From: Promethearchaeota archaeon
Lineage (GTDB): Archaea; Asgardarchaeota; Lokiarchaeia; Sigyniarchaeales; SOKP01
Assembly: GCA_019058365.1 (NCBI GenBank)
Contig: JAHPZE010000023.1
Location: 1-64,000, forward strand
DNA: 64,000 nucleotides
Direction of reading: 5' to 3'
Every line of letters begins with the position of its first letter. Position 1 is the stretch's first letter. Of the stretch, positions 1,027-62,332 are shown one piece after another. The notes below the pieces were generated by a model. The model ran no database searches and was not told the DNA's origin. It saw only the letters and a list, made by a program, of their open reading frames with translations. The position numbers were made by a program, and so were the translations under genes.

Positions 1027-1644
1027 ATTACAAAAAAAATAGAAGAATTCCAAAAACAAGGAATAAATATTGGTCGAGAAAGGGTAAGGCTTAAACAACC
1101 CAGAATTTATCCATTAAAAGAATCAGAGTGGAATGAAGAAGTTAAAACAATCTTAAAACCATTGGTTGATCAAAAAACTGGTCGCATTATCAATATTTTC
1201 AAAACCTTAGCTAAACATGAAAAACTCCTAAAGCGATGGCTTGTATTTGCTAACCATATTTTGGGTAAATCTTCTCTCCCTGCAAGGGAGCGAGAAATCC
1301 TTATACTTCGTATTGGTTGGCTCTGCCAATCGGAGTACGAATGGGGTCAACATGTCAAAATAGGAAAAGAAAATGGGCTTACCGATAGCGAAATTCAAGG
1401 GATCATAAAAGGTCCAGATTTAAATGGGTGGAATAGATTTGATGCGACTTTATTAAAAGCTGTGGATGAACTTTATTATGATTCTTTTATTAGTGATCTT
1501 ACTTGGAAGACACTTAATGAGCGGTATAGTACACACCAACTTTTAGATTTGATTTTTACAGTGGGTCAGTATAATCTTGTAAGTATGGCACTAAATACTT
1601 TAGGTGTTCAGTTGGAAGATGGCACTAAAGGTTTTCCTAAATAA
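1027..1644 (+). CDS. Carboxymuconolactone decarboxylase/AhpD-like family protein
   Basis: LPAREREILILR, SEYEWGQH and TVGQY motifs. The frame is open from 1009 and contains the N-terminal PRIxP motif upstream of the TTG at 1162. SD GGAGGT (1012-1017) favours an ATT start at 1027. Confidence 0.85.
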   Translation: MTKKIEEFQKQGINIGRERVRLKQPRIYPLKESEWNEEVKTILKPLVDQKTGRIINIFKTLAKHEKLLKRWLVFANHILGKSSLPAREREILILRIGWLCQSEYEWGQHVKIGKENGLTDSEIQGIIKGPDLNGWNRFDATLLKAVDELYYDSFISDLTWKTLNERYSTHQLLDLIFTVGQYNLVSMALNTLGVQLEDGTKGFPK

Positions 1645-1806
1645 AAAATATCTAGAATTTAAAAATGAAGGATATATTTTCAATAGCTTAAAGAAGCATA
1701 TTATTTTGGGGGATTATAAAATACTTTTGTATATTTTCTCCTCTTGAAGATGTTGTTAATATAATATTATGTTCCCGTTTAACGCTTCTAAATTATAAAA
1801 AAAGAT

Positions 1807-2553
1807 TTAATCTATGGCTAGTTCTAAACCATCGAAAGCTGCCATTACATCTGGAAATAGTGTTTTAGCTTTTTTTTCTGCTTTTTTTCTCTCCTGTATA
1901 GTTTTATAAGTACTTGCATCAAAATGAGTTAAGACCAATTTTTTTACGTGGGATTTAACAGCTACTTCAGCAGCTTCTTCTGGTTTAAGATGAGGCCATC
2001 CCCATTCTTCTTGACCAGGCTTATATGAGCATTCTGTAATAAATATGTCTGCATCTTTAGCAAGTTCAAATAAATTTAGGCATAAACCAGTATCAGTACA
2101 ATATGTAATGATTTTATTTTCTAGTTCTAATCTATATCCTACACATGGATCTGCATGAACAAGAAACCTACACGTAACTGGAAACCCAATGTTATGTTTC
2201 CCTTCATCTAGATCATGAACTTGGACATTTAGTGGTAATTCAGCAAATGGGGATGAATAGGGATGGTTTATGATCAAGTTTAACCCCATTATTGTTCCTC
2301 TATATCCATAAATCTTAATTTTCTGATTAAAATGGAATTTTGCAAACGCATGAAGTCCTATTATGTGATCCAAATGAACATGACTAAGTAGTAAAATGAT
2401 TGGTTTTTCTTCATCAATATATTGATCAATTTTATAAATTCCATCACCCGCATCTAATAAAATATAAAATTCATCAGAGCAAATTAATGTAGAAGTAGTA
2501 TTTCCTAAATCTGTTGCATACCAGCCATTAGTTCCTAAAAATATAATTTTCAT
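1807..2553 (-). CDS. MBL-fold metallo-hydrolase, RNase Z-like
   Basis: FLGTNG start, DAGDG, HVHLDH (HxHxDH), TDTG, LTHF. Confidence 0.88.
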   Translation of the reverse strand: MKIIFLGTNGWYATDLGNTTSTLICSDEFYILLDAGDGIYKIDQYIDEEKPIILLLSHVHLDHIIGLHAFAKFHFNQKIKIYGYRGTIMGLNLIINHPYSSPFAELPLNVQVHDLDEGKHNIGFPVTCRFLVHADPCVGYRLELENKIITYCTDTGLCLNLFELAKDADIFITECSYKPGQEEWGWPHLKPEEAAEVAVKSHVKKLVLTHFDASTYKTIQERKKAEKKAKTLFPDVMAAFDGLELAID

Positions 2554-2628
2554 ATTATTACCGAATCAGTGTTTGGAATAGTAATAATAAGACTATAACT
2601 TAAATTTAAGTTAAGATTATGTTAATTG

Positions 2629-3453
2629 TTAGTTTTTTCCGATTTGTATGCATCTCATTGAAACGGAGCCATGTTGAAATCCTTCATGGATGAATATTAC
2701 GGGTTCATCTTTTTCTTGTAAAGCAATTGTGTAGATCAGTGGAAGGTAATGATCCCATGTTGGAATTCCCAAATTGGCAACATTTCCCATTTCTTTAAAA
2801 TTTATTAAATTTTGATGATTATAATGCAATAGGTTTTTTTTTACAATCTCATCAAGTTGTTTTGCCCAATCCATTATAGGTGCATCAACGTTAAAGTCGA
2901 TAATCCCTAGATTATGTACGATATTTCCACTTCCGATTATTAAAACTCCCTGTTCACGGAGGAATGTTAGATTTTTTGCCAATTGATAATGATATTCCAT
3001 GGGTTTCACGTTCCATCTGTTAAAACCATAATCTAAACTAAGTTCTAAAACAGGGATATCTGCATTAGGGTAGATATGTTTAAGGATTGCCCAGGATGCA
3101 TGATCATAACCCCATTCATGATCACATGTAACATTGAAGGATTCAAGTTTCTTACTAATCAACGTGGCTAATTCCGGCAATCCAGGACTTGGATAGTCAA
3201 TTTCGTAGAGTTCCTTTGGAAATCCATAAAAATCATATATAAGACTAGGTTTCTTGGAACATAATACTCTTGTCCCAGAAGTCAACCAGTGAGCAGAGAT
3301 TACTAAAATTGCTTTTGGTTTTGGCAAATCCTTACCCAATTTCTTCAAATTTTGAGTAAATTTGTTTTCAGAGATAATATTCATTGGAGATCCATGCCCT
3401 ATAAAAAGCACAGGCATTTTTAATCCTTCATTTTTGTTTCCCTTTAGAGTCAT
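2629..3453 (-). CDS. ygiD: DODA-type extradiol ring-cleavage dioxygenase (YgiD/LigB family)
   Basis: MPVLFIGHGSPM, ISAHW, YDFYGFP, DHASW, GSGNIVHNL, HYLPL motifs. Confidence 0.88.
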   Translation of the reverse strand: MTLKGNKNEGLKMPVLFIGHGSPMNIISENKFTQNLKKLGKDLPKPKAILVISAHWLTSGTRVLCSKKPSLIYDFYGFPKELYEIDYPSPGLPELATLISKKLESFNVTCDHEWGYDHASWAILKHIYPNADIPVLELSLDYGFNRWNVKPMEYHYQLAKNLTFLREQGVLIIGSGNIVHNLGIIDFNVDAPIMDWAKQLDEIVKKNLLHYNHQNLINFKEMGNVANLGIPTWDHYLPLIYTIALQEKDEPVIFIHEGFQHGSVSMRCIQIGKN

Positions 3454-3473
3454 ATGAGAGTACTTAAAAAATT

Positions 3474-60608: not shown

Positions 60609-60662
60609 TTAAATGCATGATTAGCTTAGTAAAGCTTAAATGCATGATTAACTTAGTAAACC
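60609..60662 (+). repeat. 27-bp tandem duplication directly upstream of the mop-like start
   Basis: TTAAATGCATGATTAGCTTAGTAAAGC / TTAAATGCATGATTAACTTAGTAAACC (25/27 identical). Confidence 0.9.
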
Positions 60663-60664
60663 TT

Positions 60665-60880
60665 ATGCCAGAAATTAGTGCTAGAAATGTATTAAAGGGT
60701 AAAGTAAAAAAAGTAATTCATGGTGCCGTAAACTCTGAGATTATTGTTCAATTACCAGGAGGGATTGAAATAGCTTCTATAATTACAAAGGTGTCTGCTG
60801 AAAAGTTAAAACTAAAAACAGGAGTGGAAGTATCAGCAATTATAAAAGCTACTAATGTTATGCTAGCAACCGGTTTTTAG
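60665..60880 (+). CDS. Molybdate/tungstate-binding TOBE (Mop/molbindin) protein
   Basis: ISARNVLKGKV, SIIT..S...L.L..G..V.AIIKA. Confidence 0.92.
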   Translation: MPEISARNVLKGKVKKVIHGAVNSEIIVQLPGGIEIASIITKVSAEKLKLKTGVEVSAIIKATNVMLATGF

Positions 60881-60922
60881 TTATACAAAAGTTTAGAGTT
60901 TAAGAGATTTATATTTAAATCT

Positions 60923-62332
60923 TTATTGTAAATCCACATCATTTTTTATCTTAGGGTAACTTTTATTTTTTTTTCTTTTGGGTTTGCTTCGAACTGTAAT
61001 ATCATAAAGCCATTTATAGATACTTAAACTCTTAATATTCATGATAGGTTTAGTGGATACCCTAACTTCTTTAATTTTTCTCAATAATCCGAGAACAATA
61101 GTGATTCGTAAAATTCCAGATATGAGAAAGATGAAATGATAAGAGTTCATAAAAGAGATTTTAATAAAGCTAATAAGAGAACTCCCAAGAAGTCCTCCAC
61201 CAATTATAGCTAATCCAATTAAGGAGTTATAAATAGCAATATACTTACCACGTCTTTTAGATGGGATATTATCGTAAATAAAGTTAGACGCTGCTAAATT
61301 GAATGCTGTCCAGCCAATTCCACTGAATATTTGAATACCTAAGAAGATTTGGAGAGGAGTGACGTAAAAGATCCAGAAAAAGGGTAAAAAAGGGATTATA
61401 ACTGCTCCAATTTGAAGCAACTTCACATTTCCGAACCTATCAGAAAATCTTCCTAATATTGGAAAAATAATAAGTCCTACCAATGTTGATGATAAATTAA
61501 TAATAATAAAAAGAGAATATCCGAAGTTTAATTGGGTTAACATATAAATAGAGAAGAATGGTTTTGCAATCCATTGTGCGAATGTTAAAAAAGAGACAAA
61601 TATAGTAAAGTTTCCAAAATTACTTTTAGGAATTTCTTTAATGAATTGGCTAGTTTTTACGTGATCATTTGTTTCAAAATAGAAAGGAGGGTAATAATGT
61701 TTAGTAAAAAGAAATGCTGAAGTTAAACGAGTGATAAGACCAAAAGTAAATAATAAGATAAATCCATAATAAACTAAATCCTGAAATTTAAACCAATCTA
61801 ACATAAAAGATAATAAGATAATTCCAATTATCCCTATCGATTGGGTAATTAGATTTCTTTTTGCAAAATATCTACCCCTATTATTCTCAGGAACAATATC
61901 TCCCATTAGCGAAAACCATGGAGGAGTCATGATTCCTGAGAATAACATATAAACCAAAAATACTATAATCAGTATCCAAGGAAGATACGACTGAATAAGA
62001 TTAAATTGGTATAAAAGAGCTATAATTATAAATAAAGGCCATATAAGAGCCTGTCCCAAAATTCCGCATATTAAAATTTTTTTTCGCGACTTATTTTCAA
62101 TTTGACGAGAACCTATCATTTGTCCAATTGGAGATGCTAAATTTCCTAAAGAAGATATTATCCCTGTTTGAAATAATGAGGAATTAAGACTAAGAGAAAA
62201 CGGAACGATATAATTATCTGATAAAACACTACTAAATACTCCAAAAGATCCTTCAGCAATCGAAACCTTCATTGTTTTCTTTTTGAGTTTCTCTTCAATG
62301 TAGACATCAACATCATCTATTGGAGCTGAAAT
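60923..62332 (-). CDS. MFS transporter
   Basis: About 12 TM helices, MGDIVPE..RGRYF, GRFSDRFG. The frame extends 20 codons upstream of ATG 62272 to an ATT at 62332. Confidence 0.88.
   Translation of the reverse strand: MSAPIDDVDVYIEEKLKKKTMKVSIAEGSFGVFSSVLSDNYIVPFSLSLNSSLFQTGIISSLGNLASPIGQMIGSRQIENKSRKKILICGILGQALIWPLFIIIALLYQFNLIQSYLPWILIIVFLVYMLFSGIMTPPWFSLMGDIVPENNRGRYFAKRNLITQSIGIIGIILLSFMLDWFKFQDLVYYGFILLFTFGLITRLTSAFLFTKHYYPPFYFETNDHVKTSQFIKEIPKSNFGNFTIFVSFLTFAQWIAKPFFSIYMLTQLNFGYSLFIIINLSSTLVGLIIFPILGRFSDRFGNVKLLQIGAVIIPFLPFFWIFYVTPLQIFLGIQIFSGIGWTAFNLAASNFIYDNIPSKRRGKYIAIYNSLIGLAIIGGGLLGSSLISFIKISFMNSYHFIFLISGILRITIVLGLLRKIKEVRVSTKPIMNIKSLSIYKWLYDITVRSKPKRKKNKSYPKIKNDVDLQ

Follow-up and report, generated by a model that had tools for sequence, protein, structure and literature searches.

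Near-cognate codons as probable translation starts in a Loki-type archaeal genome and its relatives

A 64,000-nucleotide stretch of a Promethearchaeota archaeon (Lokiarchaeia, Sigyniarchaeales; assembly GCA_019058365.1, contig JAHPZE010000023.1, here C48:1-64000 and called the window) raises the question of where translation begins in genes that look protein-coding well before their first ATG, GTG or TTG. The metagenome-assembled genome to which it belongs comprises 4.74 Mb in 54 contigs, with ~30% G+C. A first-pass annotation of the window had named six genes of this kind and had assigned them starts at ATT, ATA, CTG or ACG; when we re-read the sequence, all six near-cognate codons, their Shine-Dalgarno (SD) motifs and the in-frame stops upstream were found at the positions it had given. 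Its estimate of about one gene in eleven also holds, as the six stand among about 62-66 open reading frames (ORFs) of the window. We consider it most likely, with a probability of roughly 0.87 judged from comparative sequence data, that these six intact genes each initiate at the named near-cognate codon (ATT in three, ATA, CTG and ACG in one each) and that such starts are a lineage-wide trait. In what follows, canonical starts are ATG, GTG and TTG, ATH stands for ATT, ATA and ATC, and starts were searched among the codons lying between the in-frame upstream stop and the first canonical start.

Start sites of the six genes and their orthologues

The best-surviving alternative is that each protein starts at the first ATG, GTG or TTG downstream, the preceding stretch being a leader that is not translated and stays open by chance. 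In its favour, the public protein collection holds just these shorter products: first-ATG forms of four window genes are deposited, with 499 amino acids (aa) for the MT2 methyltransferase, 65 aa (of 173) for the nuclease-fold protein, 449 aa for the MFS transporter and 1044 aa for the caspase. The same records bear out the expectation of the first-pass annotation that gene callers would truncate such genes.

Two genes speak directly against a downstream start. The thioredoxin-like protein (48786..49076, minus strand, 96 aa from ATA) carries its CxxC motif (CAKC) ahead of the first canonical codon, which lies 80 codons on (+80), and the gene has no usable canonical start. Its ATA is preceded by a weak SD (GTGG, 49086-49083) and an in-frame TAG at 49088, with a second stop two codons further upstream. 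Among 15 species of the genus, the start column holds ATA or ATT in 14, two of which have an ATG directly 5', and ATG in one; two paralogues have TTG in this column. The membrane-anchored nuclease-fold protein with a C-terminal zinc ribbon (53291..53812, minus strand, 173 aa from CTG) has 27 of its 31 invariant residues before the first ATG (codon 109; first canonical +108). Its SD AGGTGA (53824-53819) itself contains the in-frame stop, a TGA at 53821, and the start column reads CTG in this genome and in the relatives G005, G006 and G009, TTG in G001, and ATG in G018, G012 and G030. A Pfam search gave no family for this protein; its structural model has a pLDDT (predicted local distance difference test) of 83.8, and the best Foldseek matches, which are weak (E=7e-3, target-normalised template-modelling score 0.67), are to PD-(D/E)xK/Vsr-type nucleases, so that a restriction endonuclease-like fold is plausible from the model, not firm. 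Pfam supports the labels of the other five genes (CMD, Peptidase_C14, URO-D, Thioredoxin_3 and MFS_1).

The start column of the MFS transporter gene (60923..62332, minus strand, 469 aa from ATT) holds ATT in nine of nine species of the genus (66-95% identity). In the window the ATT is abutted by TAA (62333-62335), which is directly upstream in four of these species, and follows an SD-like GTGA at 62341-62338; the first canonical codon is at +20. Distant homologues have an ATG-led N-terminus that reaches beyond the conserved KTM motif. A scan for bacterial-type promoters upstream of this gene gave no signal over the shuffled background.

For the MT2 or URO-D-like methyltransferase (17795..19378, minus strand, 527 aa from ACG; SD GGAGGT 19392-19387, in-frame TAA 19387, first canonical +28), ACG is likewise present in the start column of G020, which belongs to another family and is 66% identical. 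Other homologues have ATG (five), GTG (three), TTG (two) or ATA (one) in this column behind GGGGGTG. The family occurs in two forms, the fused one of ~530 aa found in the window and one of ~400 aa followed by a stop and a separate ORF of ~130 aa (G020, G015 and G001).

The caspase gene (Peptidase_C14 with TSP3 repeats; 6974..10216, plus strand, 1080 aa from ATT) has the motif GAGGAGGGAGG at 6960-6970 and an in-frame TGA at 6959. One detail of the first-pass annotation changes here: the SD that stands at a working distance is the upstream GGAGG, with a spacing of 7 nt, not the GGAGG that lies 3 nt from the ATT. Its first canonical codon, a TTG, is merely nine codons on, which favours a downstream start; it falls within a membrane helix, and across species the TTG codons of this helix fall at +9, +8 and +6 and thus at no conserved position. 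By comparison, the orthologues of G005 (80% identity) and G018 (60%) retain the ATT, preceded by GGAGG or GGGGAG and, five codons upstream, by a stop. The product is a large protein of the surface type, with a membrane helix at its N-terminus, bacterial TSP3 repeats, a zinc ribbon at its C-terminus and a weak match to Peptidase_C13.

Finally, the CMD-family gene (1027..1644, plus strand, 205 aa from ATT; SD GGAGGTG 1012-1018, in-frame TGA 1006, first canonical +45) has four orthologues at 81-90% identity with ATT, ATT, ATC and ATT in the start column behind GAGGTG, a stop five codons upstream and the first canonical codon again at +45. The Pfam CMD match covers residues 66-128 of the ATT-read protein, and the alignment with homologues at 53% identity starts at residue 17.

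Taken gene by gene, the start column exchanges with ATG, GTG or TTG in the MT2, thioredoxin-like and nuclease-fold genes, and also in IscU outside the window, and holds near-cognates only in the CMD, caspase and MFS genes. The N-terminal extensions proposed at first pass are open and conserved among orthologues, in up to 15 species. The six starts are preceded, at 0-6 codons, by in-frame stops of all three kinds (TGA, TAA and TAG), and four of the six SD motifs comprise from 5 to at least 7 bases. In most extensions, codon position 2 is the most conserved and position 3 the most variable, the signal being weak for CMD and MT2. The canonical codons downstream move between species, and it is the near-cognate codon, rather than the downstream start, that the SD motifs precede at a working distance.

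Family profiles add an independent reference for the N-terminus, since they begin at the near-cognate codon: NCBIfam profiles start at residues 2-8 of the ATT-, ATA- or ATC-read NifU/IscU, uS10, uL16, eL21, proteasome alpha, threonine synthase (ThrC), ECF ATPase and flavorubredoxin. On this evidence we regard initiation at the downstream codons as very improbable.

Beyond the six, a scan of the window for near-cognate starts gave no clear candidate and a single ambiguous one, an ATT at 59564 (minus strand) that lies behind GGAGG, three codons 5' of the TTG opening the ORF 58878-59555.

Genome-wide signal and breadth of the lineage

The genome-wide signal was examined in 3924 stop-bounded ORFs of the genome picked by codon usage. 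Ahead of first canonical starts, the motif GGAGGTGA is most frequent at 4-10 nt; measured as aligned SD distance, canonical starts peak at 12-15 nt, and both ATT and ATA peak at 14. With SD motifs of five bases, counts at the aligned distance of 12-15 nt against those at control distances were 173 vs 7 for ATG, 38 vs 2.3 for TTG and 16 vs 1.7 for GTG, and among near-cognates 34 vs 8.7 for ATT, 30 vs 7.7 for ATA, 8 vs 4 for ATC and 6 vs 0.7 for CTG. The other 53 codons pooled gave 69 vs 123. With four-base motifs, CTG (10/112, odds ratio 4.4, p=2e-4) and ACG (7/60, odds ratio 5.9, p=3.5e-4) occurred at rates similar to that of GTG, and AAG, AGG, GTA, CTA and ACA were unenriched. The predicted working start set is AUG, UUG, GUG, AUU, AUA, AUC, CUG and, rarely, ACG, with AAG and AGG apparently unused.

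Subtracting the controls leaves ~88 near-cognate and ~580 canonical starts, so that near-cognates make up 13% of SD-led starts and occur in at least 2.2% of genes. In a set defined independently of the SD, 104 genes show 30 or more coding-like codons ahead of any canonical start; an SD with a near-cognate codon was present in 65 of these extensions, against 24 of 104 for decoy codons. Such an SD precedes only ~19% of first ATG starts. Long SDs (five bases) make up 0.58-0.85 of those at near-cognates vs 0.36-0.46 at ATG, TTG and GTG. Because the share of long SDs is higher and SDs are more frequent, near-cognate starts depend more strongly on the SD than canonical ones.

CTG and ACG starts could also be followed beyond the window by orthologue alignment. 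CTG occupies the start column twice in a Fer4-ETF alpha protein, three times beside TTG and GTA in an AN1 zinc-finger protein, and three times beside GTG in an HTH_3 protein. The ACG start of A-type ATPase subunit C (AC39; G000:C26:23515, plus strand) is kept in four genomes of two genera at 51-98% identity, and a Fer4 protein (C16:381442) has ACG here where a relative, 97% identical, has ATG. What this adds is orthologue support for CTG and ACG starts, the latter lying outside NCBI translation table 11. AT mutation pressure alone fails as an explanation for CTG and ACG, as both changes from ATG (or TTG) raise the GC content. Two further ACG candidates fared differently: at a Pop5-like gene (C35:200506) ACG was rejected, since orthologues keep the adjacent ATH and other families have ATG or GTG (or TTG) one or two codons on, and the candidate at C41:68332 had no orthologues in 30 relatives.

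The breadth of the pattern is clearest in IscU. In the column before Y-S-[DE]-K-V, ~48 Promethearchaeota species have ATT in 23, ATA in 17, ATC in three, ATG in two or three, TTG in one and GTA in one, whereas outgroups (Methanobacterium, Thermoplasmata, Bathyarchaeota and others) have ATG in 22 and GTG in four. The ribosomal proteins eL21 and uS10 have ATA in this genus, as does uS10 in a sister genus, and ATG in other families. When 1.2 Mb of a complete genome from another family were sampled, SD-led ATH codons were again in excess (9/620 vs 8/4189, odds ratio 7.7, p=9e-5). Starting at near-cognate codons thus appears to be a trait of the whole Loki-type (Promethearchaeota) lineage, no oddity of the window. 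IscU across ~48 species and the genome of the second family support the relaxed start-codon selection proposed at first pass, as read from codon usage; the further suggestion made there, that such starts could be regulatory, lies outside this support.

Several side observations concern the same columns. GTA is found twice (IscU of G017 and the AN1 zinc-finger protein of G018), in both cases behind GGTGA at normal spacing with a stop three codons upstream; sister species have ATT or ATA (IscU) and CTG or TTG (AN1), and GTA could be either a double-mismatch GUA start or a lost start. The uS10 gene of G040 has TCG in the start column behind GGTGA, with no canonical or near-cognate codon nearby. 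In-frame stops occur in the IscU matches of G013 (one TGA) and G029 (a TGA and a TAA), which may be assembly breaks or a split gene.

The same comparisons bear on a second alternative, namely that the genes are recent pseudogenes that have lost their start or that the codons reflect errors of sequencing or assembly in a genome put together from a metagenome. The assembly is in 54 contigs with an estimated contamination of 6.6%, and the ACG at C16:381442, given the ATG in that relative, could be a fresh start loss. However, the same non-canonical codons recur in many independently assembled genomes. Near-cognate starts also occur in essential genes present in single copy (uS10, eL21, uL16, proteasome alpha and ATPase subunit C), and the enrichment behind an SD is confined to near-cognates. 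Reading frames are intact across all orthologues of the six genes, with no frameshifts or internal stops, and most extensions show a coding-like pattern of change. The recurrence in independent assemblies makes assembly error very improbable; neither a loss of the extensions in orthologues nor relaxed selection as in recent pseudogenes, the other refuting observations named at first pass, is seen, and we rate this alternative lower still than a downstream start.

Upstream starts and the initiation machinery

Equally improbable is a start further upstream, by stop read-through or recoding or by re-initiation from an upstream ORF, with the near-cognate codon read as a sense codon: some Asgard lineages are reported to recode stop codons (PMC9723677), and the MT2 ACG lies 1 nt past the stop of the upstream gene (a TAA ending at 19380), where termination-reinitiation could contribute, but all three kinds of stop, TAA among them, occur upstream and differ between species in kind and position, no conserved coding sequence or canonical start is found 5' of them, the thioredoxin-like gene has its second stop, and MT2 homologues carry ATG, GTG or TTG in the very column of the ACG. 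Only MT2 abuts its upstream ORF; because four of the six genes face away from the upstream neighbour or lie 72-314 nt from it, coupling to that ORF is not a general cause. Stop usage in the long ORFs of the genome is ordinary (TAA 1372, TGA 278, TAG 229).

Pairing of the SD with the 3' end of 16S rRNA would set the small subunit so that the near-cognate codon sits in the P site, where the ordinary initiator Met-tRNA (anticodon CAU) would pair despite one mismatch; near-cognate starts would be weaker, and a long, well-spaced SD would compensate. A pattern search located an initiator tRNA gene (G000:C35, ~107637-107760, plus strand) with a CAU anticodon, three G-C pairs and, after position 37, an intron of ~32 nt. 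This rejects an altered initiator anticodon as the cause. An aragorn scan of the genome returned only 30 tRNAs and no tRNA-Met; many tRNA genes here therefore carry introns or are unassembled.

The initiation factor aIF1, to which the first-pass annotation had pointed, offers no obvious cause either. Its loop 1 reads R-K-W-G-R vs R-R-F-G-K in Methanocaldococcus jannaschii (M. jannaschii), a basic-aromatic loop on which binding of the 30S subunit and of mRNA depends in P. abyssi; as loop 1 is ordinary, no source of relaxed selection is seen there, which leaves neither a broken nor a divergent aIF1 as an obvious explanation. Since the initiator tRNA is normal and aIF1 loop 1 is conserved, we infer SD-anchored placement of a one-mismatch codon. 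The aIF1 gene has a predicted near-cognate start of its own: in this genome and in G018, ATT is the sole plausible start, the first canonical codons being at +87 and +59 respectively. Two codons lie between the preceding stop and this ATT, and the N-terminus read from the ATT agrees with that of M. jannaschii aIF1 within three residues. In other Loki genera the aIF1 start is GTG (G040) or TTG (G026).

Some observations weigh against near-cognate initiation as the explanation. The aIF1 of S. solfataricus rejects AUU in vitro (PMC4705826), so that wide use of AUU calls for an explanation, which the normal-looking loop 1 and initiator tRNA do not provide. The thioredoxin-like and MFS genes carry SD-like motifs of merely four bases. 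The codon-position signature of the CMD extension is weak (0.15/0.10/0.17 differences at positions 1/2/3), which also speaks for a downstream start in that gene. The set of 3924 genes comes from a crude ORF and codon-usage model, and the relatives used for comparison are non-independent samples. The genome-wide ACG count is inflated, as it includes the Pop5-like gene, whose conserved start is the adjacent ATH, and one candidate without orthologues. Near-cognate starts perhaps reach up to ~7% of genes, a figure roughly extrapolated from the 104 genes with long extensions.

Known systems and significance

The nearest bacterial precedent is infC of E. coli, encoding IF3, which starts at AUU behind an SD and is under translational autocontrol (Butler et al. 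1987, as described in PMC4705826). The Loki genus resembles it in that AUU follows an SD and the gene of a fidelity factor, aIF1, itself has ATT as its sole plausible start. It differs in that bacteria have a handful of such genes and here they amount to several per cent, including ribosomal proteins, and in that the aIF1 fold is unrelated to IF3. NCBI translation table 11 admits TTG, CTG, ATT, ATC, ATA, ATG and GTG as starts; ATT, ATA, ATC and CTG are thus listed, as rare prokaryotic starts, ACG is unlisted, and the frequency of near-cognates found here is far above what annotation practice assumes. For the genes treated here, starts in the public calls are confined to ATG, GTG and TTG.

In eukaryotes, weak near-cognate initiation occurs at CUG, GUG, ACG, AUU and UUG (PMC4705826). 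The one-mismatch repertoire including ACG and the shared aIF1/aIF2 core recall this, in the archaeal lineage closest to eukaryotes; unlike in eukaryotes, the codon would be picked by SD anchoring rather than scanning, and it would be the only start of the main ORF rather than an alternative upstream one. We think it rather unlikely, if worth stating, that Loki initiation stringency lies below that of any studied archaeon or bacterium, with a eukaryote-like start set (AUU, AUA, AUC, CUG and ACG, without AAG or AGG), and that aIF1, its own gene AUU-started, sets it through an infC/eIF1-like feedback on several hundred weak-start genes, among them those for ribosomal proteins, ATPase subunit C and IscU.

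Individual cases have been described before. A 'rare ATT start codon' was noted for the Asgard tubulin AtubA (bioRxiv 10.64898/2026.02.15.705738), where the deposited protein is likewise shortened, and reading it from an upstream ATT that follows a ribosome-binding site restores the fold. Proteogenomics of Deinococcus deserti is reported to have revised starts to non-canonical codons (PMC2830850), and the start of E. faecalis EbpA is reported to have been revised to ATT (PMC4447247). Those cases concern isolated genes or a bacterium, whereas the pattern here is genome- and lineage-wide; a full-text literature search found no description of such a genome- or lineage-wide pattern in Loki archaea, which is no proof of absence.

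If a few per cent of Asgard genes start at codons that annotation ignores, many deposited proteins would have lost N-terminal parts such as signal anchors, metal-binding motifs and first beta-strands, and others would have been missed altogether. Asgard genomes are mined for eukaryote-like proteins. The stringency of start-codon choice is moreover a key difference between prokaryotic and eukaryotic initiation, and a lineage that has the eukaryote-type aIF1/aIF2 core and whose essential genes tolerate AUU, AUA, AUC, CUG and ACG would lend itself naturally to studying how stringency is set, a question that cultured Loki archaea would make testable.

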